This document shows positions 32,858 to 51,978 of a stretch of 64,000 bases of DNA, piece after piece (within the stretch, counting starts at the first letter, position 1; every line of letters starts with the position of its first letter). Origin of the DNA: Amphiscolops sp. MND2022. Its lineage: Eukaryota. The notes beneath the pieces were generated by a model. That model did no database searches and had not been told where the DNA came from. It saw nothing but the letters and a program-made list of their open reading frames with translations. The translations under genes were made by a program, and so were the position numbers. Location: assembly GCA_964187785.1 (NCBI GenBank), contig OZ076409.1, positions 56,670,001-56,734,000 of the forward strand, given 5' to 3'.

Positions 32858-33577
32858 TGTAACGTCAAGCTAGCAGCTACATTCCAGAACTGGGACAATG
32901 CTCAGGTTGCCTTAACAAGAGACCAATGTCTTATAACTACCTAAACATTAGTTTTTGATCCCAAGTGGTCTCTGCAGGGACTTTTCCAAGACGCCGAGGA
33001 GACTCCTCATATTAGAGCTCCGTGGCGACGTGCCGGCACACTCAAAGTCCGGACACGTCCCACAAGCACGTAAAAACAGTCCTAAAGGCTTCCCGCGATC
33101 CTACATATCTCCGAGGTCCGAAAACAGGGGTTTAGGCAAGGCTCATTTCAATTATGTGAATAACGTCTAAAATCAACAGTACGAGGATCTGGCAGATTCA
33201 ACATCACCATATATCTGCAAATAGTAATCAAAAACAACATAACTAATCAAATTAGGCTTTTCCAGCGCTTCTGTACTGATTTTGCAGTTTTCTTCATCTT
33301 CTTCTGATATGGGACATCTGGATCGAAGGCCATTTCTAGTACAATATACAATTTTCTGGGGAGATGACACAATTTCCGCGATCTTCTTGTCTCCTCATAC
33401 CGTGTGGATGTTCTTTCTTCTCTTCTGGGTCGGGGGGGGGGTTGTCTTTTTCGTTGTGTGTGCTTCTCTTTTTTTGATTTCAACGACCTGCTAGGTCGGC
33501 CATTTTGGATTCGCACATTTTCGACTTTTTCAACGAATTTTTGGTGCAAACTGGTATGTCGATTGGTGGACGTTACA
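32858..33577 (-). repeat. 3' LTR of the giant element
   Basis: Direct repeat of 51259-51978, with a 9-bp terminal inverted repeat TGTAACGTC. Confidence 0.97.
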
Positions 33578-33585
33578 TCCTCCCC
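33578..33585 (-). promoter_or_regulatory. Short polypurine tract
   Basis: GGGGAGGA abuts the 3' LTR. Confidence 0.7.
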
Positions 33586-34052
33586 GGGCCACTGTTTGTC
33601 GTCCTCGGCAAACGGAGAAGGGCGTACCACTACTTACAAATGGTGTTAGCAACATCATTTCCAGTTTTTGTTCTTTTTTTGATCTTACTGCTTCAAAATC
33701 TCGATTTAGCACATTTTTGTCAATTAAGGGACATTAAAAACCAGTTACTTTAAAACTCTTTTCATTTGTTCGACTCAGTTTAAAACTTCTTTTTCTAGGG
33801 TGGTTGCACTTTTGCGACAGCTAGCCAGTAAAACAAAGAATAGATCTCTTTTACTAAAACTTCAATTGCACTGTGTTTAAGCAAGCAGGCAGGTACCAAG
33901 CTGGGACCAACCCGCTGGGTAGTTACACTCACAAAACTATGTTAGTACTTTGTTAACTAAAATTTAGCACTTATGTTCTATAATTGCCAAGGTTTCAGAT
34001 GTTTTAGTTAGTTTGGTTTGGTTTGTGATAGCATCAAAGTTCAGTTTCCATC

Positions 34053-34601
34053 TCACTTGTTGCTAGCGGCATCCATGACAGTGTCCTCTTCCTGCAACCC
34101 TTCATTTAGTGATACTGCTAATGCTTCTGACGATGATGGCTCTTGCTGATTCAAGTCTGGTAACCCACTGAGTTCAAGTTCAATATCAGCTGCCTGTAGC
34201 CTTGATAAAGTCACAGATGTGTCCTCCGCTACGTCTAGTGACACTGCTTGGTCATCTGAAGTAGTAGTTGTGATACTGTGCGTGGGTTGGTTGGCTTGTG
34301 CAGGATGTGAAATGAATACATCAGTATTTGCTGCTGCGGCTGGTGTGGTATTTGAATGACTCATAATTGACACTGCGGAAGTTGGATTGCCAGCGGCAGA
34401 AGTCTCCTCGTGCCCTGCTGCCCGTCCTGTCGAGGTAGAGCCCGCTGGGCATGCTTCTGGCAGCTGGTTTGCGAGGTCCTGGCGTCCGTAACTGGTGAAG
34501 ACTTCCCTGTAGGTCCCTACTGCATTTAGGTAACTGGTATAGACAGAATTGCTCTCTCCTCTCTGTTTGGCAATCAGGCTCATGAAGATCTCCATGGCCA
34601 T
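34053..34601 (-). CDS. Probable true C-terminus of ORF2, separated by a 1-nt frameshift
   Basis: Removing one base at 34603-34605 joins ...EEIMKKQSK to MAMEIFMSLIAKQ...DAASNK, giving a protein of about 1389 aa from ATG 38223. Confidence 0.65.
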   Translation of the reverse strand: MAMEIFMSLIAKQRGESNSVYTSYLNAVGTYREVFTSYGRQDLANQLPEACPAGSTSTGRAAGHEETSAAGNPTSAVSIMSHSNTTPAAAANTDVFISHPAQANQPTHSITTTTSDDQAVSLDVAEDTSVTLSRLQAADIELELSGLPDLNQQEPSSSEALAVSLNEGLQEEDTVMDAASNK

Positions 34602-37600
34602 CTTTGGATTGTTTCTTCATTATTTCTTCATTTAGAGGCAAAGGTTTTCGATTGGGTTCCTTGGCGATCTTTGGGACTGTTGCTTTCAATGCTTGATATC
34701 CTTGGTAGATCATCCTGTCTACTATTGGTGGATCAGCCCAATGTGTGGTTCTCGATAGAATATTGGCTGTGTCGGCTCGCGGTTCCGCTCGTGGGTTATA
34801 CATCCGGGACATATCGATCACTACTCGATGTTGGAGCGTCTCTGGCGTGGAGCCTTTTCTTCTTCCACCCAAACGTTGCACTGCATTGGATAGTACTCTA
34901 AGGATTCCAGGTTCATCCCAGCCAGTGAAGTGTTGCAGGGCCCCAGTACTAGGCTCAACGGGAGCGTGCAGCCATTCCACAGGGTGAAGTTCTAAGGGCA
35001 TGGGGATAGCGCACCGCGCTCTGGCTCGGATCAAGGCACCAAAGTTGTACTCTACCTGCTTCTTGTCCTTGATTATAGTAAACGCCATTGGTGGTCGGAA
35101 ATTGGTAAAGTTACGTACTAGCGCATGGAAGTCTGGCGGCCTGGCGTCGTCTTCCGGGTCTACGAAATGCAGGATTGACAGTGTGGGTGCGCTAGCGGCG
35201 ACCCTAAGTGGCTGCGTGGGGTACCTCAGAGCCATTACTGAGCCAAATATTGGCCAGATGATAGGAGCGATTAAGGGGATTAAGTCTTCCGTTTCCACCA
35301 ACATTAGACTGGCGACTTGTGATGGGAATAGAAAACCTGGCAGGTTTTTATCATTGCGTCTCTGACTGTGTGGGTCGTCCAAGGTGCTCATCATACCGGA
35401 GACATTGACCCAGGCTGAATAAATCCAAGCTAACATTGTCTCTACATTCTCGGTTAGCTGGGCGCGCAACTTTAAAGCGCCTGCGGGGTCCAGTGTATTC
35501 AAAATGGCGTTGATCCAACTTCTCCGGTTCTTTGCAAAGATAAGGAAGCTCAGCAGACTGGAGTTAGTCTTGCCTAGGATTAGCCCCTGCACTAAATGCA
35601 CAGGGCCTTTGTAGACGGCGCTTAGGCCGACGGCCATCAGGTAAGCCAAGATCTCTGCGATTGTGGCTCGCTGCATTGCTTCTATATATAATTTTGTCTG
35701 TTGTTCGTCTAAACTACTCTCGCTTGATACCATGGTCGGCACCCAAAATGGTGAAATATTGTAAAGAAATATGGGGAAGGGAATTCCATGGCTTTCCGCC
35801 ACTTCCACTAGAGTTCTCTGCAATGTTTCATGCCATGACTGGTAGGAGTGCTCTGGGTTCGCACGGTTTTCTTTTGCCGTCCTTTGCGCCAACACCACCA
35901 GCAGCACTAGGGTGGGCGAGACCATGTTGGGCTTTGAATCAATTGCCTGCATTGCTACTGGGAATACTGTTGTTTCTGTTCTGTTTTGCTTGATCTTTTC
36001 GGTCTCCCTGAAGAGGGCTAACAGCTCTTTGTGGAATTTTGCTTCATGGGTTTTCTCATCCAGTGTCGATTCATCTCTTCTCTCAAACCATCCGTTGTCG
36101 ATCATGTTAGTGCGTTCCTTTCCGTTCGGCTCTTTGACTTGGCGTACCCCGTTTTCATCGAAGGTACGGTGCGCCATTTGCATTCCAAAGTCGAAGGCAG
36201 TGGCATCATCGGCAAGTAATTGGGAGTTGCCCGAGTATCCTGTACAAGCCTGCAAGGCTTTCGAAATTTCTGCCAGGAATGCAGAGTAGGAATTTTCGCA
36301 TGGACGCCAGGTTGTGGCGCTTACTCTCAGGTTCGGTGCCACGATATGAAAGGATAATTTTTGGGCGTAGGCTGCTTCCGATATGAGATATAACAACTGT
36401 TGGAGTGGCCTGGGCAGATACACATATCCTGGGGGAGATACAAAGACTACCCCTACAGCGGGTTTCTTTTGTTGTGCCCGCCTGATAACGTTTCTCATCG
36501 TTTCAATGTACGCTGTCACTTCAGCCGTCATCACTTCCTCCGTTAGGTTACGGTTGCTCTCTGCGAAATACCTTAGAGTTCCTCGAAGAGCCAGGTGGTC
36601 AATCACGTTGCCGTAGATCAATAGCGGGGGAAATGGGATGGTTTCTGCATGATTAGCAGCAGGGCCAAAGACCTTGCAGGTCACTTCGGCCATTTCTTCT
36701 AATGAAGTACAGGGTAGGTTCATTACGCGAACATCCATCAGGGTGTTGTTCATGTTCGCAGTTGCCTTCATTGTAGAATCCATGAACAAGGCAATTCTCG
36801 TCTTTTGTAGCATTTCTTTGCCCATGGGGAGCAAAGTCGTCACATCTCTCATGAAATCGCGACTTCTCATCAACTGTTCGTCATATCTGGCTGGTCGTTG
36901 TACGGCTAGTTTCACCTTTGATGGCAATGGTTTCACTAACGACGACCTGTCTCTGTGGAGATCCTCTCTTACTCTTTCAAACCATGGAGGAATACGGTCC
37001 AATAGGAGTGTCGGATTCTTTACTGGTCTCAGATAGTGTATTCCAATGGATGCTCTTTCAAGGTTCCTTACATCCTCTGGGTTTCCTTTGCTGCTGGCCG
37101 TTTCAAATTTCTGGATATCCAGCCCTGAGTCCGGATTCCCCGACCTTGCTTCTTTCTGCAGACGCACAGCGTCTCTTGCAGCTATGTCGTACTGCCGGGC
37201 TTCCGTCTGTGATAGGAGCTCAGAGAATCGCACTCGCCTAGCTTCCGGCTGTTGCACTGGTGAGGGGTTCGGGCTGGAGTTTGTGGCTTCGGAATTGGCC
37301 AATTCTCTTGCTCTTTTCTTTTGAACCAATTGTTCAATCTTGTTTTGTTCTTTACGATTCAGGATATCTCGCAGATCAATAGGAGCCTTTGCTGCTCGTC
37401 TCTCCGTTTGCTCCTGTTCTTTTTGTTGTTCCTGTTTGTCTGGATCAGCCTGAAAACCTATTAGGTGCTGTGGATCCGTTGGTGTCATAGGCGTCAAGGC
37501 ATCATACGAGTCTGGTACCCCAATCACGTCTCTCATGATGGGTACGTCAAGCGGATTTCGCATCATGACTGTTCTTGGTTTCTGGCTGCTAGTTTCATCG

Positions 37601-38349
37601 GTGGTATGCGCACTAGTGTGCATTTCCTCCACCCCTTCCCCCCTGAAAGAGGAAGGGCGCATGAGTTCAGGGTCGCCCTCCGCTAATCGCCGGACGCTGA
37701 TGGAGGCGGACGGTGGGGGTGGTGTCAATACTGGTGGCGGTACTGGGGGTAGTAGGCATGTGATCTGTTGGAATGACGGTGTATGTCGAGATTGGTTGTT
37801 GTGGGCAGGTTGGAGTTGTTCCATGGGAAGCCTAGCAGGCTCATCATACCTCATGCTGGACCTGTGGTCGTCAAAGTGGTGGGTCAGATCATGACCGCGC
37901 CATGTACCATTGTGGAGTTCTGCTGTCCTGCGGTATGAACCGATTCCAACAGATATGGATAGGGTGAAGTCTGGGTGCATCTCCAGAGACTGCATTTGTG
38001 CAATCAGCATAGTCATCCCCGTTACCAGTGTCGGAAGGGCGCCTTCTTGAAGAGTTGATTGGACTAGACCAAGCTGGTCTATTGTGGCTTGGGCCCCATC
38101 TACGGGCAGCGAGGGCACGGGAGCTAGAGGTGTGGCTGACTGATTTTGGCTAGATTGGGAGGTGCTCGGCTGCGAGCTTGTTGTTGAAGGAGCTGGCAGG
38201 CGCGTTCTTGCCGACTGATCCATTATATGAATAGGTAGCACCTTAGACAAAAGATTACGTTGAGTGTACTGCAAATATGGTGATATGCGGCTGGCTGTGT
38301 CAAGTGCGTAGGAATTGACAGGACTGAACTGAAAAACAACAGACATCAA
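34321..38349 (-). CDS. ORF2 of the giant element (env position): large protein with a putative SGNH/GDSL-hydrolase-fold domain, likely start ATG 38223
   Basis: 1342-codon ORF. Disordered S/Q/P-rich N-terminus. SGNH-like blocks IALFMDST / NLPCTSLEEM / PPLLIYGNVIDHL / VVFVSPPG / TWRPCENSYSAFLAEISKAL at about 36250-36804. Hydrophobic helical C-terminal region. Confidence 0.85.
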   Translation of the reverse strand: MMSVVFQFSPVNSYALDTASRISPYLQYTQRNLLSKVLPIHIMDQSARTRLPAPSTTSSQPSTSQSSQNQSATPLAPVPSLPVDGAQATIDQLGLVQSTLQEGALPTLVTGMTMLIAQMQSLEMHPDFTLSISVGIGSYRRTAELHNGTWRGHDLTHHFDDHRSSMRYDEPARLPMEQLQPAHNNQSRHTPSFQQITCLLPPVPPPVLTPPPPSASISVRRLAEGDPELMRPSSFRGEGVEEMHTSAHTTDETSSQKPRTVMMRNPLDVPIMRDVIGVPDSYDALTPMTPTDPQHLIGFQADPDKQEQQKEQEQTERRAAKAPIDLRDILNRKEQNKIEQLVQKKRARELANSEATNSSPNPSPVQQPEARRVRFSELLSQTEARQYDIAARDAVRLQKEARSGNPDSGLDIQKFETASSKGNPEDVRNLERASIGIHYLRPVKNPTLLLDRIPPWFERVREDLHRDRSSLVKPLPSKVKLAVQRPARYDEQLMRSRDFMRDVTTLLPMGKEMLQKTRIALFMDSTMKATANMNNTLMDVRVMNLPCTSLEEMAEVTCKVFGPAANHAETIPFPPLLIYGNVIDHLALRGTLRYFAESNRNLTEEVMTAEVTAYIETMRNVIRRAQQKKPAVGVVFVSPPGYVYLPRPLQQLLYLISEAAYAQKLSFHIVAPNLRVSATTWRPCENSYSAFLAEISKALQACTGYSGNSQLLADDATAFDFGMQMAHRTFDENGVRQVKEPNGKERTNMIDNGWFERRDESTLDEKTHEAKFHKELLALFRETEKIKQNRTETTVFPVAMQAIDSKPNMVSPTLVLLVVLAQRTAKENRANPEHSYQSWHETLQRTLVEVAESHGIPFPIFLYNISPFWVPTMVSSESSLDEQQTKLYIEAMQRATIAEILAYLMAVGLSAVYKGPVHLVQGLILGKTNSSLLSFLIFAKNRRSWINAILNTLDPAGALKLRAQLTENVETMLAWIYSAWVNVSGMMSTLDDPHSQRRNDKNLPGFLFPSQVASLMLVETEDLIPLIAPIIWPIFGSVMALRYPTQPLRVAASAPTLSILHFVDPEDDARPPDFHALVRNFTNFRPPMAFTIIKDKKQVEYNFGALIRARARCAIPMPLELHPVEWLHAPVEPSTGALQHFTGWDEPGILRVLSNAVQRLGGRRKGSTPETLQHRVVIDMSRMYNPRAEPRADTANILSRTTHWADPPIVDRMIYQGYQALKATVPKIAKEPNRKPLPLNEEIMKKQSKDGHGDLHEPDCQTERREQFCLYQLPKCSRDLQGSLHQLRTPGPRKPAARSMPSGLYLDRTGSRARGDFCRWQSNFRSVNYESFKYHTSRSSKY

Positions 38350-38528
38350 TTTGGGCTAAAAGAACGTTCTTGACAAGTACAATTAGGCTACAGTCGAAGT
38401 TAAGAGACACATGATTAAAATAGAGTCGGTCATAATTAAAACCCAATTCGGCGATTGACTAAAACAATACAGGCGTTACAAGTTATGAGTGGGTTTCATT
38501 GTAATTACCCTGAACGTGCCACTGTAAT

Positions 38529-41500
38529 TCAATCAAGCTTAGACTTTCCATGATCAAGGCGTGTCTCAATTGAAGCAATGGACACATACACTCTGTCGTG
38601 TAAGACAACGTCAATATTGGAATCGATGAAATGGTCCCTCAACATTGAATACCAAGCTGGTAGCATGTTGATGGATCTTTCAGGGTCGTAGATGGGCAAA
38701 TGGATTTGGGTAGCGTGTGCTCGCATCAGCTTCTGTATTAGGTCTACTAGGCATAGATGTAGCACATCATGGAGGATGGGGTGTTTATTAGAGGCTCTCG
38801 TGATTAACAATATGATCTCGTTATTCCATGGCGCTGTTGTTGATTTCGGGAGGCGTATGGCCTTCCCCACAGCTGGGCGTAGCCGGAAGATTTCTTCTTG
38901 GCCGTATTCTCGAACAACATAGCGGGCCATTGCTGAGTACGCCAATAGGTCTGCTGGACAACAGATCGCCACAGTTCCTCGGGCTTGCAAAATGTCAGTT
39001 TCTTCGTAGGAAATCCATGACAAGTAATTCGGTTTGAATTTTGGGTGGGTCGTTAATAGCCTCCCAGTGATGGTGCTGTGATCGTTTTGGCCAAGTGAAA
39101 GATGAGCTAGAATGGCTTTATGATCTTGCCAGACTGTTCTACGCAAAGGCCTCGCTCCCATATTCGTGCAAGACCAATCATGAACTACGGATAGTGCTTC
39201 TAGCACGGTCACTGGATTTTCAAAAGTATACGTGTACTTGTCTAGTAGGTGTATTTTAGCTTGACGACAGAAAGTGATAGCTAGTAGCTGTAACCAATGT
39301 TGACTAAGGAATTTTCCACGATAAATGTCTGCTAGATGGAAGCACAGGGTGTCCTCAAACTCTACTAGTGTACGCAAGTTTTCTAGGCAGGTCAGTAGAG
39401 TTCCTGGGTTAACCGGTGATGATTCGTCCAAGGTGGTGACTAGTAACCACCAACCTGTCGTTGGGTGATATACGTCTCCCGGTGGTAAAGTCACACCATA
39501 TTGTTGCCATAGCTTCTGAGCTGTGATACAGCGTACCATTGCTATTTTCATGTCCTTCGGATCTAATTCGCCAAACACAATCGATGGTGGGAGTGGGGGA
39601 ATATTTGCTGCTAACGTGAATTCTAATCCACTTTTGTCATGCCACGTCCATTCCTTAAATCGATAGGTGGGGCTATCTGAGGGCGATGTTTCATGCATGG
39701 CTTTCAGCGTGGTTTCCAAGGGTGGGACCACACCTGGTCCGATGCTCGAATATGTCTTTTCCACAGTAATTACAATGTGATACACCCGTGAAATGTCTTG
39801 GTCATGGGTTTGTACGTGTCGAATTGTGTGTTGCATATGGTCTTCCGTCGTTTCAATGACAGCTAGGTCTGGGGCAGGAGCGGCTACTCCCCGGGCCAAT
39901 CGGTTGTCCGGTGATTTCCCTTCGACCAGGTTGACGCAGCTACAGTTGCGAGAACCACAGTTTCCACACCGATACTTGGGTGCTCTGTTGCGTCGTAGCA
40001 AATATGGTGGGGCTTGTGAAGGCGTTAGTCGTTCCGCTTCTGGTTGTTCCGGTGATACGCTTTCTGCAATGTTGGGCAATGTCATTGCACGTTCCAATGC
40101 TCGTGATTGTGCTCTGGTTTGTACTCTGTCTCTCGATTTAGTGCCTGGTCTGTTTGTTCTTGTGAGTGCTCTACTTGATGAGCTGGTACTTCCTCTTCTA
40201 CGCCCTGGAGGTCTACCTCTTGGTCTGCCTCTTCTAGTTGCAGTTCTCCCTGATGTGGGTGGTGCTTCTATGCTTTGACCCGGTTTTAGAATCTCCCTGT
40301 CAGTTGCTTCTTGGGGTTCGGCTTCCTCAACAGGTTCTGGTCCTACCGAGCTACCAGCTCGGGAACTGAACAGTGGGAAATTACTCAATGTATCGGTTAA
40401 TGCTGGGTTCGATAGCAATGGTGCGGAGGTTCCCGACGGTGAAGGTATCAGATTCTGTGCTGGTTCAGGTAAGATTTCTTCCTGATCAGAGAACAATGGT
40501 TCTAGGTCATCGATGTCAGGAAAAACTACTGGTTGCTGGGTTTCTTCGATGGGTTGTTCTATTGGTTCTGGATCAGATTCTGATTCGGATGGATATCCAA
40601 AGTGACTAAACCGTCTACGTGGGATTCCTTGTTCCAAAGCAGATTGAGTGCGTGTCTGAATCGTGCGGGGGGGGACGGGCGCAGTTGGTTCCATTTCAAA
40701 TGATGCCTCCGGCAGTTGTTCTGGAAGAAACGAATCTCGTGAAATATCAGAGGTAATTTCCTCATTACTTTCCTCCACATACGGGTCTGCCATGATGGCT
40801 ATATTCTGGTCTAAGCCGAAGGGTTGATGTGCTGCCCATTCCCAGGGCGCTGGCACATGTTTCTTCAAGCGCTCGAAATGAACTTTTTGGCCCGTGTCTA
40901 ACACGTAGAGTCGTCCATCTTGTAATACATCTGTGACCTTGTGAGGTCCACGCCAGGCACGAAGGAGTTTACGGGTGCCACCCTTGGGAATTATGTGGCA
41001 AAAAACCCAAACAGCGTCACCCACAGCATGAGCTTTTGCTTTCAAATGCCTGTCGAACTTCTGTTTTTGTCGTACTTGCGCCTGATGAGTGTTTCGGCGA
41101 ACAAGCTCGTGGATTTCTTGTTGTCTAGCAAGTAAGTGCTCTACAAATTCTTCTTTGGACCCAAACTCTCGCGCGGCAAATTCTGGGTATATGAACGAGA
41201 GCGGAATGGATTTTTCCGCGCCATGTTGGAGCATGTACGGGGAGAATCCCGTCGTCGCGTGTCTGGTTGAATTGTAGGCACCCAAGACTCCGTCTATGTG
41301 CTCATCCCAATCTGACATCCTGCGTGACGTATAGACTCTGAGCAAGGTGAGCAACGTTCGGTTCTGACGTTCAACTAAACCGTTGCCTCTAGGATGAGCT
41401 GGAGTAGATGTTACTTTAGTTACTTGCGAAGCTTTCATCAATTCTTGAGCAATCTCAGCAGTGAAGTTAGTGGCATTGTCCGACTGCATCCTGGCAGGAG

Positions 41501-44500
41501 TGCCATGTCTTGCAAACCATTTGTTCAGGATAATCTTTGCAGTCGTTTGAGCGTCGTACTCATCATGCGCACATGGGATTGCTTCTGCAAACTTGGTGAA
41601 GTGGTCGATGATAACTAACAATCCGTTATTTCCTGATGTTGTCTTGCACAACTTCAATTGGTCAAACTGCACCAAGTCGTTGAAATTGCTACTGTTGGTA
41701 CTTTGGAAGGGATAACAGGGATTCCCAGCGGGATGCTTTGTCTGTTGGCATGTTAAGCAGTGCTTAATATGATTGACAACATCGCGTTTGATGCCTGGCC
41801 AGGTGTGGCGTTCTTGTATTCTCGCCAACACTTTGCCAACGCCTTGGTGTCCTGATTCATCATGCGCTCTGTACAAGATTTCATGCTGGTAGAGTTGGGG
41901 CATGACAATCATGCATGGTCGTACGTGCATCGCGCGTTGCTGTGGAATGTAGTTGACACACAAGATGTCATTCTGATTCAAGAACAGTAAATCTTTCTTT
42001 TGATGGAAGTACCGTTTGGCGAAGTCCTGCACGTCCTCAGGGAACAGAGTGTCTTCCAATGGTTCGTTCTTCATGAGTTTCCTCAGTGCGAGAAGGTGGA
42101 CATCCCTGTTTTGAGCTAGATGTAGATCTTTCAATCCCCGCAGTGTCGATTGGTGTTCGTGCAGCTCAGTACCAGCTAGCCTAAGGACATCGGCTTGTTC
42201 TTGGCACTGCGTTGGCAATCTACGCAACGCTGGGTCCCGTTGGGTGGTATCGAGACGTGCCGCTGGCACTTTGGTCGTTACGCTAAGGATACAATTTGGC
42301 CTGTCGTCTTCAGTCGATGTGGGAGTTGTTTCCCATTGCACTTGTGGGTACCATGGTATGGAATTCGAAGAGGAATCTGAGGTCAGCTTCTCCTTTGGTG
42401 GCTTCTTCAAAATGTATAGCACAGGGAGTTGTGCTCGAGCTTCTGGTGGAAGCTCCGGATGGTCCGGAATGAATTTGCCATGTTTGTCGATATATGGCAC
42501 AGTTGGGAGTTCTTCGTAATCTTTCTGGGACATAAAGCTGAATCCCTTGCTCACTTCTGGTAGAGCTTCCACAATCTTCTCTCGATGCACGTAATCGTTG
42601 GTCCTTTTGCTAAGACCGTCCGCATTTCGGTGTTGCGTGCGTGGTCTGTGGATCGTCTTGAAGTGATATTGGTCAAGGCGCGCAATCCAGCGTCCAATCA
42701 TGGCTTGGTCCATTGAATACGTCTTCAGCCACGAGAGAGCCTGGTTGTCCACGCGCAGCGTGAATTCCCGACCCGCAAGGTAGGAATGGAATTTCTCGAT
42801 GAAATAGAATACCGCATACATTTCCAGCTTCGGGGCGCCATAATTCAATTGTGTTCGAGTCAGTGACTTGCTACCATAAACGATGGGACGGAGAATGGTT
42901 TTCCCCTTGTATTCTTGTTCCTGGTGCAGTATGCCGGCTATAGCAACTCCACTGGCATCTGTATCCAAAACAAAACGTCCTTCATCATTCGGGGCTGCCA
43001 AAGCTGTGGCATCAGCTAGTGCCTGTTTCACTGAATCAAACGCTTCTTGATGTTTTTCTTTCCAGTGGAAGTGTTGGTTCTTCTTTAACAACTCCTGCAT
43101 AGGCTGTACTTTGGCGGCGTGGAAAGGAATGAAGTCTCGGTAGTAGTTCGCGAATCCAAGGAAGCTTTGTAGCTCTTCTCTATTTCTTGGGGGCATCCAC
43201 TCTTGGATTTTGCTTACGGCAGCCGGGTCTGGCTTTATGCCTTCGGCAGAGACTACTCTTCCAAGGTATTTGGTTTCAGTGCGCATGAAATCACATTTCT
43301 CGGCTCGCATCTTGAAACCGGCCTCTCTGAGACATTCGAATACTTCTTTGATTCTCTCCAAATGATCTTCAATGGTCTCTGTAGCGATTACTATGTCGTC
43401 AATGTATGCCATGACAACACTTCCATGCCGTTGCTGGATTCTTTGCAGAGCTCGAGTGAAGGATCGCTGAAAGGTGGCCGATGCATTGCATAGCCCGAAG
43501 GGCATGCGTCGCCATTCAAACAGGCCAAGCTCACATGCGAAGGCGGTTTTTCTACGATCGCGCTTCTTCAGCGGGATCTGCCAAAAGGCCCACGCTAAGT
43601 CAATGCTCGTGAAGATTTTTGCATTCCCAATTCTTGAGAGGCTTTCGTCAATCCTGGGCAATGGAAATGCGTCCTTTACTGTTACATCGTTTAGCGGGCG
43701 GAAGTCACAGCAAAAGCGAAGCTCGCCTGTTTTCTTTTTTACCATGACTATGCCACTGGCCCACGGAGAATAGGAGGGTTGTATCAGTCCAAGGGCCAAC
43801 AAATTTTGCACTTCCTGATTGGCTTTCGCTGCCTTATCAGGGGACATTCGCCTTGTTCCTTCTCGGTGTGGTATAGCCTCCGGCTCTAGCTCTATCCTGT
43901 GCTTTGCAATCTTACACCTACCTATGTCAGACTTATTTTTCATGAATAGATCTTCGTACTCATTTAAAATAGTCTCTAACTTATCTCTCGCCTCTTCCCC
44001 CCATGAAGAAAGGACGGAAGAGAGGTCAGGGCCTGGGATTGCTTTTAGCAGTTGAGGATCTGTTCGCTTTCGCTTTTCACTCTCTGACAAATCTAACTCA
44101 GACGGTTCAGTCGAAGACAAGAAGTTTTGGGCAAAGGAACTAAATTCAGAACTGGTGTCCATATCAACATTCTGTTGTATTTGATGTACATGTTCGGCAA
44201 AAAGCTTCGAAGCTTCACCATTATTTTGCAAAGGAATTGAGTTCAATACAAAAGTGGTAAGCGCCGCTTTGCCAACAACAGTTTGTGCTTTAACCCTTAC
44301 CCGTTCTTTGTCAGTTTGATTACGTAGGGCTACGAATATTATGCCCTCTTCTCCCACGGAGGTTAGTGTATCTTCTGAAACAAAGACTGAGCGAGATTTG
44401 ATGCTACATGAATGGACCATTACATTACGAAATAGGAAATCATTTGGTTGTTGTGTGATGATCTTTGCGCGTACTACTTTTCTTTCAAATGGACCTAGCA

Positions 44501-47500
44501 CGACCTCATCAGTGGAGATAACAAACGATGGCTCTTGGTCACTTACCTCATGTACGGTTTTGAAGATTCGAGGTGTTTTGGGGTCCCTGATAGTAACTTT
44601 CATTGCCGTCAAATCCACCAACACGTTGTATGTACGCAAGAAGTTGCGACCCAGGAGGAAATCTTCTGAACCAATGTTATCCGCTATTACTACGAAATTG
44701 GTCTTCAGAGTGTATCCGCCAAGCTGAAAGCTTACGTCTTCAGCTATGCCAACAGTGGTGATGTTCTTGCCATTGGCAGCGAAGAGTTCAATGTCATGTG
44801 GTGTCAGGCTCAGCGCATGTTGGGAGGCAATCTTTTTGTATGCGCTCAAAGATAGAATTGAGACTCCCGAACCGGTGTCAATCATGCCGAAGAGTGGTAT
44901 CGGCTTTTGCAGAGGGGTTCCGAATGCCACAACTAGCGAAGCTCGTTCATCAATCTGAGCTTCCCCTTGTGCATCCTGTACTCCGATGTTATAACAACGC
45001 AGTTCTTGCCTGCCTAGATAGAGGCCTTGCGGAAAGTGTCCTTCCAGGACAACAATCGCATCAGACCTAACGTCCACGCCGTCAACCGTGATCGCTATGG
45101 GGACTGGCGCTATTGTCTTCACTCTCTGGACTTGAGCTAGTTTAGTCTCATCTGTTCTGGTGAAATGGGGTAATGGCCTGGAAGCTATCGTCAAGTTGGT
45201 ATTGCGGCAGAGTTCTTCCTTCAATTGCGCCAAGGTTAGGTTTGGGCGCGCCTTCTGCTCTGCCGAGAGTAACAAATGAATGGATATTAGCGTCTCAGTG
45301 CAGTCGGGCGCTGGGGCTTCAAGCGTCGTCAAGATTTGCTTTTCACCACAAGTCACGACCACCGGGCGTGAGGGGCCGCCATCTTCCGAAGTCGAAATCA
45401 CCCTTATTTGATCCTCTGAATCACGGTAGTCCCTGGAGTTCGTGACAGGGGCGTACCACGCCGTCCTTACCTGTTCTTCTGTCGCTGCATTGTCGGGTAT
45501 CGTACAGTCTGATGCCACGTGGCCGGAGCGACCGCAATTGACACAAAAAGCTGATGTGCTTTGTTCTGGTAGGGATGCGGGCACCAAGTCGTCATTCATG
45601 CCGCGCGGGTTTGATGGACATGTCCATTCTCCAGCTACGTTCGTGCGACACGAGTTAACTATTTGTTGCATTGGCTTCCTCGCTCGGTCCTTCAATGGGC
45701 AATCAGCTACAAAGTGTGAAGGGTCTCCACAGTTGAAGCATGCACGCTGCGGTTGCTGTCTGAAAGGCGCAGACGGTTGTTGGGGTTGCTGGGCGTTGGG
45801 CGGTTGAGGGGCTGGCGCCTGCGGTTGGTTTTGTTGATTTGCGGCAGCAGGAGGAAATTGCTGCTGATGTTGCTGGGGTGTGGGATAACTTTCAGATCGG
45901 GCCGCACCTCGCATGCGTAGGTATTGTTGCACGGTGAATCGTAGGGCCTCCACAGTTGGAGGTGTATCAACATACTGTTCCTGCGCGTACATGAGTGCAA
46001 GGTTTCGTTTCAGTTCGAAGCTACGTACTCCCTCGATGAATTTTTGCATGATTTCATAGCGTCTCACCGCCACTTCTTCGTTGGGGAAGCCTTGACTGCG
46101 TAAACCTTCCAATGCGTCCAGATATTGCATGTAATCCTCGTCGGGGGACTGATTTCGAGTGCGGAACTGTTGCTGAATTTGGATTTTGTTGGATCCCGTT
46201 CCAAACCTTCGTGCTAGTAGCGCGAAGACTTTTTCTTCAGTATCACGTTCCGCTTCTGATTTGTTCGTTATGTAGTCACGTGCCTCGTTTTCCAGAAATT
46301 CTACTATGGTCCATGCTTTATCCAGGGGGGTGTCCTTGGCGTGAGCTTTTCCCAGGTAGCGTTTCATTAACATCAGCCAACCATCCACTATCCCGTCGCG
46401 TGTGCCGCGGTATTTGGGCGGTTTGTTCTTGGTCTCTTTTGCGGCAAGTAACGGTTCCAGACCTTTAGACATCGCGGTGGTTATTGCTTCTGCCAACGTC
46501 TGACTGGGTATGGCATTCGGAGGGTTGTTGTTAGCAGTCCCGTTCACTGTTGCTGTATTCAAGTTCCTTTTGGTATTTGTCCTTCTCTGCGTGCTAGAGG
46601 CCAATGGCCGTGGTTGGGAACTATCGTAAGTAAAGGCTAAATGTTTCGCGCCCAGGACTGAAGAGGTGGCCGTGTGATATTCAGTGTTTCCCGTAACGGT
46701 GTTCATGTCACTGGGCATTTGGCCACTAGTCGCCGAATAGTAATCTCCCGTCGTCGAAGCACCTCTCGCATATGGGTCGAATGAAGGAGGGCCGGAAATC
46801 TCACAATATTGCGCTTCAGTTTGGTTTGCCGTTGAGGCATGGGTCTTCGCCGGCCTCTTTTGGTATGTTGCTGGGGGTTGCAACTTTGGTTGTTTCGTGT
46901 GATCAGATTTCATCACATTTTGACGTTGGGCAACTTCCCGATACGTAGGCCGCTGAGTCGGGAGCGCACTTGTGGATGGAGCATCTGCAGGGGCAAGTGC
47001 CACCGGCACAGGTGAGGGGCGGCTTGGTATCGTTGCTATCACGGTCTTCACCCCTAGGGTCAAGTCCTGGACCGTGGTCATAAGGTCCACCATGCGTTTA
47101 TCAACATCTAGGTCTCTGCGATATATCATCTCAGACATATTCTTGTGACGCTCCTCTGCTAATTGGTCTCTTTGCGCCATTATGGCTGTCATTTCTGATA
47201 TTCGCTTCTCCGTCAGGTCTTTAACTGTTGTCACGGATGTTTCGATTTTGCCTTGATTGGCGCGTCCTTCCATTTTTATTTCGGCTACTTCTTTTCTCAG
47301 CTCTTCCATTTTCATTTCCAGGACTCCTGCCCGTTGGATATGATCATTGTTTTCTTGGGCTAGCTTTACCTGGACCCGTTTCAATTGCTCCATGCTATGT
47401 CCAAAGTCTTCCTTTATTGCCTCGGTCTCTTTGATACCTCGGGTGATTGTTGAATTAGGGGAGGCTGCGCTGCCAGCATTAGAGTGTTGGGATATTGCTG

Positions 47501-48137
47501 TGCGCTCTAACCGCAAGACACTGGGGTCCAACACTGGTGGTGTGGCAAAGGCATAACTTTGTTGAGTCCAGTCTTTCCTGGTTTTCCGTTTTCCCAGTTG
47601 GCTTCCTGAGGGGATCATCGCGGTATTACCCAACGTGTCCCTACTGACTTCGAATACTGGTGTACCGGAATTCGGTGGGTCCGCACTCGTGCCCACATGT
47701 GGAGTAATATCTCCCAAAGTCATTCCCACCTTTGCATTCCCTACCCACTCGCTGATGTCCGAGCTAGTAGCTGCTTTTCTATTCGAGTTTGGCCAGTCCC
47801 CGGTAGCAATCACGGAAGCGTTTAAGGGAGGCCACACGTTGGTGCGGTTCATGGGAGTCCCAATTTCAATCTCAGCGCTATCCGGTGACGCCTGCGATGA
47901 ACTTGATTGGCTTGCTTGCGCAATTTGTGAGTTTTGCATCGTGTTTGGTACGTTGTCTGACATGACGTCGTCTAAAAACAGGTCGGCGGTCATATTCAGA
48001 GATGCCATTCCAGCTTGTATGCTCAGCGTGTGCAACCCTTCTATATCATTCGCGAATGGGTTGGTGGCATGAAAACCACGGTACTCGTCAGACGTTTCAC
48101 TCGATGATCTTAAGTACTCCCACTCGCTCAAACTCAT
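38529..48137 (-). CDS. Gag-Pol polyprotein, 3202 aa, single reading frame
   Basis: Coiled coil and capsid-like region (PPKYRGTRDG...). Two CCHC knuckles (45699-45740, 45504-45545). Protease IDTGSG (44871-44879). RT YIDD (43395-43406). RNase H LDTDAS...VDNQAL...NADGLS. Integrase HHCC, D,D,E and GPH motif (about 40860-41900). C-terminal extension of about 770 aa. Confidence 0.97.
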   Translation of the reverse strand: MSLSEWEYLRSSSETSDEYRGFHATNPFANDIEGLHTLSIQAGMASLNMTADLFLDDVMSDNVPNTMQNSQIAQASQSSSSQASPDSAEIEIGTPMNRTNVWPPLNASVIATGDWPNSNRKAATSSDISEWVGNAKVGMTLGDITPHVGTSADPPNSGTPVFEVSRDTLGNTAMIPSGSQLGKRKTRKDWTQQSYAFATPPVLDPSVLRLERTAISQHSNAGSAASPNSTITRGIKETEAIKEDFGHSMEQLKRVQVKLAQENNDHIQRAGVLEMKMEELRKEVAEIKMEGRANQGKIETSVTTVKDLTEKRISEMTAIMAQRDQLAEERHKNMSEMIYRRDLDVDKRMVDLMTTVQDLTLGVKTVIATIPSRPSPVPVALAPADAPSTSALPTQRPTYREVAQRQNVMKSDHTKQPKLQPPATYQKRPAKTHASTANQTEAQYCEISGPPSFDPYARGASTTGDYYSATSGQMPSDMNTVTGNTEYHTATSSVLGAKHLAFTYDSSQPRPLASSTQRRTNTKRNLNTATVNGTANNNPPNAIPSQTLAEAITTAMSKGLEPLLAAKETKNKPPKYRGTRDGIVDGWLMLMKRYLGKAHAKDTPLDKAWTIVEFLENEARDYITNKSEAERDTEEKVFALLARRFGTGSNKIQIQQQFRTRNQSPDEDYMQYLDALEGLRSQGFPNEEVAVRRYEIMQKFIEGVRSFELKRNLALMYAQEQYVDTPPTVEALRFTVQQYLRMRGAARSESYPTPQQHQQQFPPAAANQQNQPQAPAPQPPNAQQPQQPSAPFRQQPQRACFNCGDPSHFVADCPLKDRARKPMQQIVNSCRTNVAGEWTCPSNPRGMNDDLVPASLPEQSTSAFCVNCGRSGHVASDCTIPDNAATEEQVRTAWYAPVTNSRDYRDSEDQIRVISTSEDGGPSRPVVVTCGEKQILTTLEAPAPDCTETLISIHLLLSAEQKARPNLTLAQLKEELCRNTNLTIASRPLPHFTRTDETKLAQVQRVKTIAPVPIAITVDGVDVRSDAIVVLEGHFPQGLYLGRQELRCYNIGVQDAQGEAQIDERASLVVAFGTPLQKPIPLFGMIDTGSGVSILSLSAYKKIASQHALSLTPHDIELFAANGKNITTVGIAEDVSFQLGGYTLKTNFVVIADNIGSEDFLLGRNFLRTYNVLVDLTAMKVTIRDPKTPRIFKTVHEVSDQEPSFVISTDEVVLGPFERKVVRAKIITQQPNDFLFRNVMVHSCSIKSRSVFVSEDTLTSVGEEGIIFVALRNQTDKERVRVKAQTVVGKAALTTFVLNSIPLQNNGEASKLFAEHVHQIQQNVDMDTSSEFSSFAQNFLSSTEPSELDLSESEKRKRTDPQLLKAIPGPDLSSVLSSWGEEARDKLETILNEYEDLFMKNKSDIGRCKIAKHRIELEPEAIPHREGTRRMSPDKAAKANQEVQNLLALGLIQPSYSPWASGIVMVKKKTGELRFCCDFRPLNDVTVKDAFPLPRIDESLSRIGNAKIFTSIDLAWAFWQIPLKKRDRRKTAFACELGLFEWRRMPFGLCNASATFQRSFTRALQRIQQRHGSVVMAYIDDIVIATETIEDHLERIKEVFECLREAGFKMRAEKCDFMRTETKYLGRVVSAEGIKPDPAAVSKIQEWMPPRNREELQSFLGFANYYRDFIPFHAAKVQPMQELLKKNQHFHWKEKHQEAFDSVKQALADATALAAPNDEGRFVLDTDASGVAIAGILHQEQEYKGKTILRPIVYGSKSLTRTQLNYGAPKLEMYAVFYFIEKFHSYLAGREFTLRVDNQALSWLKTYSMDQAMIGRWIARLDQYHFKTIHRPRTQHRNADGLSKRTNDYVHREKIVEALPEVSKGFSFMSQKDYEELPTVPYIDKHGKFIPDHPELPPEARAQLPVLYILKKPPKEKLTSDSSSNSIPWYPQVQWETTPTSTEDDRPNCILSVTTKVPAARLDTTQRDPALRRLPTQCQEQADVLRLAGTELHEHQSTLRGLKDLHLAQNRDVHLLALRKLMKNEPLEDTLFPEDVQDFAKRYFHQKKDLLFLNQNDILCVNYIPQQRAMHVRPCMIVMPQLYQHEILYRAHDESGHQGVGKVLARIQERHTWPGIKRDVVNHIKHCLTCQQTKHPAGNPCYPFQSTNSSNFNDLVQFDQLKLCKTTSGNNGLLVIIDHFTKFAEAIPCAHDEYDAQTTAKIILNKWFARHGTPARMQSDNATNFTAEIAQELMKASQVTKVTSTPAHPRGNGLVERQNRTLLTLLRVYTSRRMSDWDEHIDGVLGAYNSTRHATTGFSPYMLQHGAEKSIPLSFIYPEFAAREFGSKEEFVEHLLARQQEIHELVRRNTHQAQVRQKQKFDRHLKAKAHAVGDAVWVFCHIIPKGGTRKLLRAWRGPHKVTDVLQDGRLYVLDTGQKVHFERLKKHVPAPWEWAAHQPFGLDQNIAIMADPYVEESNEEITSDISRDSFLPEQLPEASFEMEPTAPVPPRTIQTRTQSALEQGIPRRRFSHFGYPSESESDPEPIEQPIEETQQPVVFPDIDDLEPLFSDQEEILPEPAQNLIPSPSGTSAPLLSNPALTDTLSNFPLFSSRAGSSVGPEPVEEAEPQEATDREILKPGQSIEAPPTSGRTATRRGRPRGRPPGRRRGSTSSSSRALTRTNRPGTKSRDRVQTRAQSRALERAMTLPNIAESVSPEQPEAERLTPSQAPPYLLRRNRAPKYRCGNCGSRNCSCVNLVEGKSPDNRLARGVAAPAPDLAVIETTEDHMQHTIRHVQTHDQDISRVYHIVITVEKTYSSIGPGVVPPLETTLKAMHETSPSDSPTYRFKEWTWHDKSGLEFTLAANIPPLPPSIVFGELDPKDMKIAMVRCITAQKLWQQYGVTLPPGDVYHPTTGWWLLVTTLDESSPVNPGTLLTCLENLRTLVEFEDTLCFHLADIYRGKFLSQHWLQLLAITFCRQAKIHLLDKYTYTFENPVTVLEALSVVHDWSCTNMGARPLRRTVWQDHKAILAHLSLGQNDHSTITGRLLTTHPKFKPNYLSWISYEETDILQARGTVAICCPADLLAYSAMARYVVREYGQEEIFRLRPAVGKAIRLPKSTTAPWNNEIILLITRASNKHPILHDVLHLCLVDLIQKLMRAHATQIHLPIYDPERSINMLPAWYSMLRDHFIDSNIDVVLHDRVYVSIASIETRLDHGKSKLD

Positions 48138-51100
48138 TTTCGCTCACTCAATCTCAGTTTTCCACTAATTGATGCGGCAAAAACTTTTTCTCTTTCTGTC
48201 TTACTCTCACTCCTTCCCTTCAACAAACGAAATTAAGGCAACTCGAATTGGAAGTATTAATATCCCTTCCTCCGATTGTCTAACTAAACTGTTATACTAT
48301 TTTGTTCTGGAGCTTGTAGCTCGCGATTGCCTTCTGGGTTCTAAGTCAAGATCAGCTGGCTTTCATGAACACAATACTATTAATTACATGCACTAACTCA
48401 AGATTACATGCACTGGTGCTAATCACCACTAATCTGAACAGAAAGGTTTGCTTCCCCACTAACTGGAGATAGTTATCCTATTAAAAGTTAAAGTTAAGCC
48501 TTTTAAAAAAAATTTTTTTTTGAGGTACTTTGACAAGCTACTTGCACTAAACTACGCTTGATCCAGCCACAGGCTATGCGGTTGGAGCGAACAAAAAGGT
48601 TTTGGCACGCTAGTAGGGTTTTACGGAGGTTTATTCAAGAAATCACCGTACTTTGCTTCACAAACGTGCTTTATGTTACTCGCATTGCCCTTTAATAAGA
48701 GAGCACACGAGGGATTACTACAAAAAGGGGAATTGGGGAATAGACCTTGGGGGTGAGCAAGTGTCAGAACACCTTAGAACGAGAGGATTTTCCCAATCTG
48801 ATCGTAGCACGGTCAATAGAAATACAGATCTTCACTATTTCAAATGCTATTACACTCAATTTCCTGTCTCGAGACGCACCGCGTCCGAAGTCTAAGTCTC
48901 CTAGAAAACTCCTAGATGCGTTCTAGCTTTCTCACGTCACTTCTCAGTCGAGGCCAACGTGGCTATAGCTATTAGCTCGCACTTAGGTGACTTCGGTGGC
49001 CGTTAGTAGAGAAAACACGTTTTTTGTGTTTTTCACTCCTATGTCTCGTCAACAGTTTTCTAATGAACCCAAGATCTTAGGGTTGAGCTAGCTCTATTCT
49101 GATTGCCTCAACAGGACGTGCTATGGGTGGCTAGGGTAGAACTAGGGTTGTTTGAGCCCTCACTTGCTACTACACCTACGAAATGTATGCTATTTTTCGC
49201 AAAATTTCTCAAAATCAGCAATTTTTTCACCAAGGTGCACGCCTGGAACAGGTGAAAATCACTTCTAGAGCTAGTAGCGACCTGAAAATTTAACACGGTA
49301 TACTACAGTGGCTAAATCGTGGGAAACTAACCGCCGATTGCGCCAAAATTGTTTCCTCGTGACTCAGGGTCGCTCACCAATGTTACTTGAAAAATCGACT
49401 ATGTTGCAAAATTCACACAAGTTTGTCAAACTCGCCTTCCAGGCTTCCTAGCTACTTGAAATTTTGTATGCGAGCGTGTATTATGCCCACGTAACAGAAA
49501 AACAATATAGCGGGGTTCCCAGGTCGATATTCAGCAATCCGAGTTGACAAAACTATGCTGTACTCTATATGTCACTTTCAAGGGTCAAAATTCACAAAAT
49601 TGTCAATTTCTCTAAGTTGGCCAGTAGCAGGCTGCTCAAAATGCACAAATCGTCGGGATCTAGTGCCGTATGTACGAAAATGCAAGAATTTTAGTGCTGG
49701 GATACCTGCAAGGTATTGCACTATGCTCAACTAAAATTCAATTTTTTCGACATTTTCGGATCATTTTTGAGCAAAACTGCGGCTAAGATTTCTCGATCAC
49801 TAGTAATGGTAGCGCTACGAAACTTACACCACTAACGTAACTTTTTGCGGTCTACACGATGGTGCAATCCGTTTTGGGCTACTCCTGCTAGGAGAGATTT
49901 CGACTTGTCTTGGAAACACTACTCCAATGTTCCGATAATGTCGCAAAAATAGCACGTCTTAGGCTATTTCTCAACAACCACTGGTTGGAATCACTCGCGG
50001 TTTTCGGCGTTAGTAATCTAGTACTCTCTACTAACAGAAAATAGGCGAGCAAAACCTGGCAGGTTCCAAATAAGGTCTCTCAAAATTGATTTTAGGTTAC
50101 ACCTTGGACACTCTGGGAACACCTATGAAAAACACGTATTTTCCCTAGGAACTTTTTATTTTTCGGTTCCCAGAGGTTCGGGATGGTTTTAACAGTACAG
50201 TAGGAAGGTGTAACTACTTTATTTAGGGGACTGGGGTTCTTTCAATTATTACTTTTGATGTTATACCTCTCAGGTCTATGGGGTCCTGTACTCAGATCTA
50301 TATATATTGAAAGAAACAAGCTGTTAAAGTTTCAATTTTAATAGGGGAGCCTTAAAAAACAACTTGGTAGTAGTGTCTTGTACTACCAAGCTAGGGAACA
50401 AGGTTTTTGGGCTGATCTGAAAGCTTTGGGTCAAGTGCCCAAGACTTTGCCCTCGTCAAATTTGGTCTTTTTGGCCAATTTCGACTTTTTCTCAATAAAA
50501 TTCACACAATTTCTCGATTTTACACCAAGTTGGCCCAACAAATTTTTCTGTTCCTGACCTAGCAGGTCTGATGGAACGTTTTTCCCGTATTCCCAGTGGC
50601 CGTATCCTTTTTCACAAATTTTCACCCTTCAAAATCCGTAAAATCGCTATTTGAGCTATATAGGGTGTTGTTTTCAAGGTTTTCACGCTCAAATTTTTAA
50701 TCAACTGGTTCAAACACCCTCAGGGTATTTTTCCCAGTTAGTTTTAGTGGGGATAGGCCTGGGAATATGCTTTTTGGGCCGATTATTAGCAAGAATTGGC
50801 AATATAACCCGATTGTCGTGGGTATTCGGCAACTAGAGAGGTACTGGAGGTGTGACGTCTGAGGTGCTCACACACTGTCGTCAGCTAGCTGGGGCCTTCA
50901 GCACTCGTCCTCTCGGTCCTCATACATTGCCAATTTACTGAAATAGAGCTGCAAAACCCTTTAAAACCAGTTCCGGATAGGCCGGATTCACTTTTTCAAC
51001 AGATATTATCGAAATACAGGGGGTACACTGTCTGAAATCGCCGATTTTCGGTTCCAGACCTCGGAAATACGCTGGAAACGCAGGAAAAACACTAATACAA

Positions 51101-51224
51101 GGCCCACAGGGCTAGAATAAGGCAATAAAAACAATCTAGGACCCACCAGAAGAATTTCCTAGATCCGGACCTAGCAGGGCCGGAAAGCAGGAAAAACTCC
51201 AATTATGGCGAAAAGATGGAAAAT

Positions 51225-51242
51225 GTCCCTTGTGGGGCGCCA
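51225..51242 (-). promoter_or_regulatory. Primer-binding site, tRNA-Lys-like, 16 nt inside the 5' LTR boundary
   Basis: TGGCGCCCCACAAGGGAC matches 15/18 positions of the tRNA-Lys3 PBS TGGCGCCCGAACAGGGAC. Confidence 0.7.
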
Positions 51243-51258
51243 TAAAAACTATCCTAGA

Positions 51259-51978
51259 TGTAACGTCAAGCTAGCAGTTACATTCCAGAACTGGGACAAT
51301 GCTCAGGTTGCCTTAACAAGAGACCAATGTCTTATAACTACCTAAACATTAGTTTTTGATCCCAAGTGGTCTCTGCAGGGACTTTTCCAAGACGCCGAGG
51401 AGACTCCTCATATTAGAGCTCCGTGGCGACGTGCCGGCACACTCAAAGTCCGGACACGTCCCACAAGCACGTAAAAACAGTCCTAAAGGCTTCCCGCGAT
51501 CCTACATATCTCCGAGGTCCGAAAACAGGGGTTTAGGCAAGGCTCATTTCAATTATGTGAATAACGTCTAAAATCAACAGTACGAGGATCTGGCAGATTC
51601 AACATCACCATATATCTACAAATAGTAATCAAAAACAACATAACTAATCAAATTAGGCTTTTCCAGCGCTTCTGTACTGATTTTGCAGTTTTCTTCATCT
51701 TCTTCTGATATGGGACATCTGGATCGAAGGCCATTTCTAGTACAATATACAATTTTCTGGGGAGATGACACAATTTCCGCGATCTTCTTGTCTCCTCATA
51801 CCGTGTGGATGTTCTTTCTTCTCTTCTGGGTCGGGGGGGGGGTTGTCCTTTTCGTTGTGTGTGCTTCTTTTTTTTTGATTTCAACGACCTGCTAGGTCGG
51901 CCATTTTGGATTCGCACATTTTCGACTTTTTCAACGAATTTTTGGTGCAAACTGGTATGTCGATTGGTGGACGTTACA
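51259..51978 (-). repeat. 5' LTR of the giant element
   Basis: Direct repeat of 32858-33577. Confidence 0.97.

Follow-up and report, generated by a model that had tools for sequence, protein, structure and literature searches.

A single retroelement occupies positions 32858–51978 (minus strand, 19,121 nt) of a 64,000-nucleotide stretch of Amphiscolops sp. MND2022 DNA, which was analysed over its full length (“the window”; assembly GCA_964187785.1, contig OZ076409.1, positions 56,670,001 to 56,734,000). Its size and cargo raise the question of whether it represents an undescribed class of element, as the original prediction from the sequence had proposed. The element is a long terminal repeat (LTR) retrotransposon of the Ty3/gypsy type, and the proposed rank is overstated: its core is that of an ordinary member of the Metaviridae, and both a larger gypsy element (Burro) and cargo of dUTPase and SGNH domains have been published. 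The evidence argues, with a probability of about 0.7, for an old lineage of giant Ty3/gypsy elements (Metaviridae), apparently undescribed and now expanding, in which captured enzymes became non-catalytic modules and the integrase acts with a 3-nt stagger.

Target-site duplications and copies in the genome

The trait that sets the lineage apart most clearly is a target-site duplication (TSD) of 3 bp, which flanks 27 of 29 evaluable insertions from five families (A, 13/13; B, 4/5; C, 5/5; D, 2/3; G, 3/3). Duplications of 4, 5 or 6 bp are found at none of them, and mismatched pairs of flanks yield a 3-bp match in only 24 of 812 cases. Another four of the 33 insertions examined were set aside, namely two tandem arrays, a truncated LTR, and a locus left unresolved; five more single LTRs without partner sequence were left out of the count. 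A longer duplication with shifted LTR ends was rejected, because the bases beside the triplet vary. A decayed Ty3/gypsy relic of 5.9 kb in the same window (10534–16469; 191-nt LTRs, 97% identical) has a 5-bp TSD, which as a single control suggests that the 3-bp trait belongs to the lineage and not to the host. Judging from the duplications, the integrase would join both DNA ends to the target 3 nt apart. LTR elements make TSDs of 4–6 bp, with Troyka as the exception (Kojima 2025, PMC12440569; this paper and those on Kuafuorterviruses, Burro, rotifer elements, fish retroviruses, and ALC1-class enzymes are cited for the available parts of their text), and TSD length is not among the criteria of the virus-taxonomy committee ICTV (PMC7879559). 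An origin independent of Troyka is the best explanation for the 3-bp TSD.

The element is abundant in this genome of 1.07 Gb. Among the 40 LTR matches scored (of 3482 candidates), there are 15 LTR pairs spaced 18.0–18.4 kb apart, and all matches are 99–100% identical. The LTRs within a copy differ by 0–4 substitutions; those of the window copy align without gaps and with 4 mismatches over 720 nt, in agreement with the predicted length and number of differences. Six further copies of family A share 99.3–99.5% identity across the first open reading frame (ORF1), which is open in one of them, whereas ORF2 is open in three. Families B, C, D, and G were recovered by genome searches with database homologues. 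Family B (19.08 kb) has identical LTRs in all five resolved pairs (of six) and an ORF2 without stop codons in 33 of the best-ranked 34 matches; families C, D, and G measure 19.2, 18.9, and 19.2 kb. All five share LTRs of 710–734 nt with TG…CA ends, a long leader, an ORF1 of 3.1–3.3 thousand amino acids (kaa), and an ORF2 of 1.4–1.5 kaa. At least five families, each of 18.9–19.2 kb, have thus been recently active in the same genome, and the recent activity claimed in the original prediction is borne out by the near-identical LTR pairs, the 99–100% LTR matches, and the open copies. That prediction had recognised the element itself and had overlooked its 3-bp TSD, the offset of its primer-binding site (PBS), and the wider clade to which it belongs. 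Tandem arrays with a shared LTR also occur (G000:C2:4362373-4399836; L001-L003, L007-L009).

Architecture and relatives of the element

The features of the window copy, whose internal region spans 17.7 kb, are as follows (positions in the window; aa, amino acids):

51979–51981, minus strand: 3-bp TSD, 5′ copy, TAG in the element's orientation
51259–51978, minus strand: 5′ LTR, 720 nt, TG…CA
51225–51242, minus strand: PBS, 16 nt past the LTR end
48138–51258, minus strand: non-coding leader, 3121 nt (5′ LTR to the ATG of ORF1)
49690–50140, minus strand: conserved non-coding leader block (nhmmer match to families D and G)
38529–48137, minus strand: ORF1, Gag-Pol, 3202 aa, uninterrupted
45888–46502, minus strand: capsid-like region, aa 546–750 (weak Pfam PNMA match and conservation)
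45504–45740, minus strand: two CX2CX4HX4C zinc knuckles
44970–45404, minus strand: pseudo-protease, aa 912–1056, a tandem copy of the protease in which EAP replaces DTG
44583–44942, minus strand: retropepsin with intact DTG (D1087)
44223–44555, minus strand: dUTPase-like domain (weak profile matches), motif-3 aspartate absent
43068–44015, minus strand: reverse transcriptase (RT), YIDD at aa 1578
42588–43067, minus strand: RNase H
40848–41900, minus strand: integrase with HHCC, D-D35-E, and the GPY/F-like motif WRGPH
39213–39581, minus strand: macrodomain 1, a shortened and diverged TARG1-type copy
38583–39038, minus strand: macrodomain 2, TARG1/DarG (ALC1-class) fold
34321–38346, minus strand: ORF2, 1341 aa in the window copy, not Env-like
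36127–36816, minus strand: alpha/beta domain in ORF2, perhaps SGNH in degenerate form
33578–33590, minus strand: polypurine tract (PPT) adjoining the 3′ LTR
32858–33577, minus strand: 3′ LTR, 720 nt
32855–32857, minus strand: 3-bp TSD, 3′ copy

The leader of about 3.1 kb and the uninterrupted Gag-Pol of 3202 aa agree with the original prediction. Its second ORF of about 1390 aa does not: ORF2 comprises 1341 aa in the window copy, which departs from the family frame by an overlooked frameshift near 34,620–34,650, close to the end of ORF2, and 1424–1429 aa in intact sister copies.

The PBS starts 15–16 nt past the CA of the LTR in all five families. In families B, D, and G, for which the match is established, it complements the 3′ end of tRNA-Arg(TCG) of the host; the PBS of families A and C is a variant of the same sequence. 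The genes for this tRNA form a tandem array with a unit of ~173 nt that begins at G000:C9:57537788 (L094-L096); of the 255 genome-wide matches to the tRNA-Arg(TCG) pattern, 100 are listed, and all but one of these fall within the array.

A leader block of ~450 nt is retained in all five families (nhmmer E 6e-16 to D and 5e-6 to G) and by itself folds with a z-score of −3.6, but a single common structure is unsupported (positive covariation term of the consensus, many broken pairs), and the block has no match in Rfam. The leaders of families A and B (window 48138–51978 against L047 and L071) are 79% identical over 2 kb, and up to 93% in one block, unlike the synonymous sites of their ORFs, which are saturated; this similarity reflects either constraint or a swap of leaders. 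An acceptor-like TTTTAG lies a few bases 5′ of the ORF2 start codon in families A, C, and D.

The core polyprotein has the domain order protease (PR), RT, RNase H (RH), and integrase (IN), with DTG, YIDD, HHCC, and D-D35-E all intact. Its closest solved relative is Ty3 (E 3e-107), followed in this ranking by similarity (not a tree) by the polyprotein of a caulimovirus (2e-49), a foamy virus (4e-36), and an RT of the murine leukaemia virus type (2e-28). Two homologous LTRs, a PBS after the 5′ LTR (at a 16-nt offset), and a PPT before the 3′ LTR are further traits of Metaviridae. The capsid-like region matches Pfam PNMA at E 0.07, and the match reaches 3e-8 in a relative that has two stretches of this kind; its ratio of nonsynonymous to synonymous substitution rates (dN/dS) is 0.015.

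Relatives of the element, of the kind that the original prediction had suggested searching for in related genomes, are present in other assemblies. In a midpoint-rooted RT–RH tree of 21 rows with unnamed outgroups, from which near-identical and several partial matches were left out, the 12 proteins of the giant type form a single clade (support 100/100, stem length 0.78). The relatives P0074, P0387, and P0354 apparently come from other genomes, because they match this one at only 35%, 49%, and 55% (the search with P0354 used a stricter first pass). The basal lineage of the clade, found at ten metagenome loci, encodes gag, then in another frame a pol of ~2.6 kaa with one macrodomain, and a third ORF of 1.5–1.9 kaa. 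Several of its families are 77% identical and have open frames on metagenome contigs that reach 24 kb. A more distant Pol (P0357) comes out, with weak support (85/88), as the sister of the clade. No relative was found in the viral contigs searched, and no close relative in protein collections bears a name.

The window contains two further kinds of features. Perfect or near-perfect palindromes without spacer (arms of 44–97 nt) are located at 8295–9049 and 2648–2737. An element of 1.25 kb (28499–29753) is bounded by terminal inverted repeats of short tandem units; its decayed ORF looks, by eye, like a transposase of the MULE type.

Accessory domains and their selection

The pseudo-protease of the original prediction is supported: in an hhalign comparison, aa 912–1056 match the active protease of the same polyprotein (probability 92, E 6e-7), with EAP opposite DTG, whereas controls with five other regions and 20 shuffles reach at most 0.45. 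The duplicate occurs across the whole clade. An explanation as compensation for the fusion of gag and pol was rejected, because the basal lineage has the duplicate despite its separate gag and pol frames. The dUTPase-like module is more weakly supported. With a profile of 10 sequences for aa 1195–1305, dUTPases account for 15 of 20 PDB matches (best E 0.021), and Pfam Herpes_ORF11 matches three of the 10 dUTPase-like members (best E 4e-4); of the five motifs that mark trimeric dUTPases, motif 3 lacks its aspartate.

Both predicted macrodomains were recovered. The last 443 residues of ORF1 yield a well-folded model with a predicted local distance difference test score (pLDDT) of 82. In this model, macrodomain 2 (aa ~3034–3184) matches TARG1 (Foldseek E 5e-8; Z 15.5, root-mean-square deviation 3.9 over 141 residues) and also DarG; structural matches also occur in RNA-virus replicases. 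Macrodomain 1 is a shortened homologue of macrodomain 2 (probability 88, E 3e-6; shuffles at most 2.5), and its fold is assigned through this homology. Each of the seven aligned crown sequences has Arg where TARG1 has its catalytic Lys84 (PMC7050489), and in all crown families the GCG loop is altered to a DPER-like sequence. The basal lineage keeps the Lys and an intact GCG loop, and so does P0357, a Pol with a terminal pair of TARG1-type macrodomains whose motifs are unaltered in either copy. The clade therefore shows a gradient of macrodomain decay, from intact-looking in basal to degenerate in crown members. The region before macrodomain 1 (aa 2716–2852; window 39582–39990) contains a conserved CxxC-x4-CxC motif and a small beta-rich domain, and its dN/dS is 0.12.

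The SGNH identity of ORF2 is less certain. The AlphaFold model is poor (pLDDT 41) and yields nothing at E 0.001 with Foldseek and nothing at Z ≥8 with VIA-align; its alpha/beta region matches several GDSL/SGNH enzymes at Z 4.8–5.3, which stand among unrelated folds. Profile searches of PDB and Pfam return nothing or repeat-protein artefacts, and about 500 residues carry no assigned domain after these searches. A DS motif is invariant across the five families. Clear SGNH motifs are present in the relative P0354 (Pfam E 9e-7) and also in the basal lineage, whose downstream ORF shows SDS/ADS, GTND, and DGLHP/DSVHP near its start. The same basal ORF (L127, L130, L131) encodes a small zinc-binding domain, matched by Pfam IBR at E 8e-4 to 2e-3 in two of the three. 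In another LTR element of the host (L103, L104; G000:C9), the integrase C-terminus is followed by a fused SGNH domain whose GDS, GTND, and DGIH motifs are intact. An interpretation of ORF2 as Env, which in errantivirus-like elements has a signal peptide, a surface domain, and a transmembrane domain at the C-terminus, was rejected on hydropathy and cysteine counts, the lack of a Pfam match, and fusion-protein matches at chance level (E 0.7); the family-A protein has six cysteines, one main internal hydrophobic stretch, and no N-terminal hydrophobic segment.

Purifying selection acts on every accessory module. When natural family-A and family-C copies are compared (Nei-Gojobori; ORF2 taken from a sister copy of family A), dN/dS amounts to 0.032 in the pseudo-protease, 0.139 in the dUTPase-like domain, 0.065 and 0.053 in macrodomains 1 and 2, 0.063 in the alpha/beta domain of ORF2, and about 0.04 in aa 741–1230 of ORF2, with upper 95% bounds of at most 0.25; the distal ORF2 values are rough, because dS is near saturation there. 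In the comparison regions, dN/dS is 0.040 for the protease, 0.021 for the integrase, and 0.12–0.25 for linkers and N-termini. The pairs A–B, D–G, and A–G are saturated and show only that dN is far below dS. Neutral evolution of the modules (dN/dS near 1), the outcome against which the original prediction had set its proposal, is thus not what was found at 0.03–0.14. In the same comparison, dS falls to 0.11 in the RT (43068–44015) and to 0.25 in RNase H, against ~0.5–1.8 elsewhere in ORF1, which suggests recombination between families.

Known systems, alternatives, and possible function

Among known systems, the Metaviridae, with Ty3 as type member, stand near the element. With Ty3, the element shares the order LTR-PBS-gag-pol-PPT-LTR, the succession PR-RT-RH-IN, TG…CA ends, and a tRNA-complementary PBS; unlike Ty3, it has a 17.7-kb interior, a 3-bp TSD, a PBS offset of 15–16 nt, a pseudo-protease, two macrodomains, and a non-Env ORF2 of 1.4 kaa. 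The ICTV admits internal regions of >15 kb in Metaviridae (PMC7879559). The planarian Burro (>30 kb, polyprotein of 4,873 aa; PMC6431247) is likewise a giant animal gypsy element with a single huge Gag-Pol, a dUTPase-like domain between PR and RT, and accessory ORFs. Its cargo differs, comprising MATH, BCL2, BIR, ankyrin, and SUMO-like domains and Env (PMC6431247); Pfam detects none of MATH, BCL2, BIR, ankyrin, or Env at E 0.1 in the present element. The bdelloid rotifer elements Juno, Vesta, and TelKA also have a dUTPase between PR and RT and a GDSL/SGNH esterase in a downstream non-Env ORF (ORF3; PMC5408684), but their SGNH residues are intact, and the available text of that paper mentions neither macrodomain nor pseudo-protease. 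Capture of macrodomains by retroelements has a precedent, because fish endogenous retroviruses carry macrodomain ORFs (PMC4977317). Macrodomain 2 has the same fold as TARG1/OARD1 and DarG (Z 15.5), but here the macrodomains stand in tandem behind an integrase, with Arg at Lys84 and without the GCG loop. Giant size, dUTPase, and SGNH cargo are therefore each precedented, and their combination was not found in the literature within reach, which excluded most subscription papers and Repbase Reports. The same literature describes no TG…CA element with 3-bp TSDs, no tandem pseudo-protease, and no integrase-fused macrodomains. The lineage is set apart from Troyka, Burro, and the rotifer elements by published descriptions, not by comparison with Repbase, Dfam, or GyDB.

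Several observations weigh against an undescribed lineage with a 3-nt stagger and non-catalytic modules. The RT–RH tree was built without the GyDB reference clades, and the element may belong to a named one. TSD length was read from insertion flanks only, 2 of 29 insertions lack the 3-bp duplication, and the evidence comes from the five families of this genome, not from relatives elsewhere. The profile of the pseudo-protease alone retrieves no protease from PDB, and support for the dUTPase is weak at a best E of 0.021. The ALC1-class hydrolase SCO6735 is active without the catalytic Lys and acid residues (PMC7050489); since an active relative lacks both, the inactivity of the macrodomains is no more than inferred. 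Of the SGNH blocks I, II, III, and V (Ser, Gly, Asn, His), blocks I–III of ORF2 are in register with an SGNH profile at hhalign E 0.033, but one column-shuffled control among 20 outscored this match, and a comparison of ORF2 with the basal downstream ORF gives no significant homology (E 0.05–0.4). Families B and G have no acceptor-like site at the position of the other three.

It is improbable that the element is an already catalogued giant Ty3/gypsy family (an unnamed “Gypsy-N” of Repbase or Dfam, or a relative of Burro) in which only the fine annotation is new. The dimensions and dUTPase-like domain of Burro, the interiors of >15 kb allowed by the ICTV, and the dUTPase and GDSL/SGNH ORF3 of rotifer elements are compatible with such an identity, as is an assessment of novelty made without Repbase, Dfam, and GyDB. 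The absence of the Burro domains by Pfam, of a named close relative in protein collections, and of the terms “Macro” and “SGNH” from the text of the Burro review (PMC6431247) argues against it, as does the Repbase-based report of 4–6-bp TSDs for all LTR elements but Troyka (PMC12440569). A little less probable again is that the accessory modules work as enzymes of altered chemistry, with macrodomains that, like their viral counterparts, would strip ADP-ribose from the cDNA, RNA, or proteins of the element as a counter-defence. The confidently modelled TARG1/DarG fold, its matches in RNA-virus replicases, the strong purifying selection, the Lys and GCG loop kept in the basal lineage, the varied mechanisms of ALC1-class enzymes (PMC7050489), and the invariant DS motif of ORF2 would agree with activity, but in the crown macrodomains Arg replaces Lys and the phosphate loop is remodelled, macrodomain 1 is shortened, the dUTPase-like domain lacks the motif-3 aspartate, and the pseudo-protease lacks DTG.

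The 3-bp TSD, a hallmark of Troyka, had first pointed to that group, with which the element also shares animal hosts; this identity was rejected on termini and motifs. Troyka elements have CG…CG ends, LTRs of 100–400 nt, interiors of at most 7.7 kb, a CX2CX8-10HX4C knuckle, and no GPF/Y motif (PMC12440569), and the RT motif of Kuafuorterviruses/Troyka is I/V/LADD (Gong and Han, PMC11673190). The present element differs in all six characters, with TG…CA, 720-nt LTRs, a 17.7-kb interior, CX2CX4HX4C twice, YIDD, and WRGPH. A Troyka (Kuafuortervirus) element is hardly credible on these grounds, and the same holds for an infectious enveloped virus: ORF2 occupies the position of env, but its six cysteines, single main hydrophobic stretch, missing N-terminal hydrophobic segment (family A), and chance-level fusion-protein matches do not suit an envelope.

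As members of an undescribed Ty3/gypsy lineage with non-catalytic modules, the elements would replicate in the standard manner of Metaviridae (PMC7879559), through an LTR transcript, one Gag-Pol, tRNA-primed reverse transcription, a PPT-primed plus strand, and DDE integration, a cycle of which parts are directly visible in the copies. The lineage would have taken up a macrodomain of the TARG1 type and a dUTPase, probably also an SGNH hydrolase, besides duplicating its own protease. In the crown families, where the loss of catalytic residues and the selection on the modules are observed, enzymatic activity was presumably lost and the modules retained for binding or structure. ORF2 may, on balance, be made from spliced RNA as an intracellular accessory protein, not an envelope.

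The chromodomain of chromoviruses is an analogue for an integrase-linked binding module. By this analogy, the macrodomain pair behind the integrase could bind ADP-ribosylated or other host chromatin factors, at somewhat less than even odds. A tentative proposal of similar standing, based on the chemistry of the retropepsin dimer, is that the pseudo-protease pairs in cis with the active protease and holds it off until particle maturation. A more far-reaching view is rather unlikely: that the lineage is an undescribed branch of Ortervirales at the genus level, with an independently evolved 3-bp stagger combined with TG…CA ends and pseudo-macrodomains that recognise ADP-ribose marks and thereby direct or protect integration. 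If true, it would provide an ADP-ribose counterpart of the chromovirus chromodomain, in a polyprotein built by serial capture, duplication, and inactivation of enzymes.

TSD length mirrors the geometry of the intasome and is used for classifying and detecting LTR elements, and a second lineage with 3-bp TSDs, this time with TG…CA ends of the ordinary kind, contradicts the published rule of 4–6 bp. Annotation runs that demand TSDs of 4–6 bp or cap element length would miss this element, abundant as it is in this genome. The tandem dead protease, kept at a dN/dS of 0.03, suggests an unreported way of timing retropepsin activation, and the gradient from intact to degenerate macrodomains allows the reason why retroelements capture ADP-ribose enzymes to be tested with single domains. 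The joint expansion of at least five families, several with identical LTRs, bears on the size of this animal genome.

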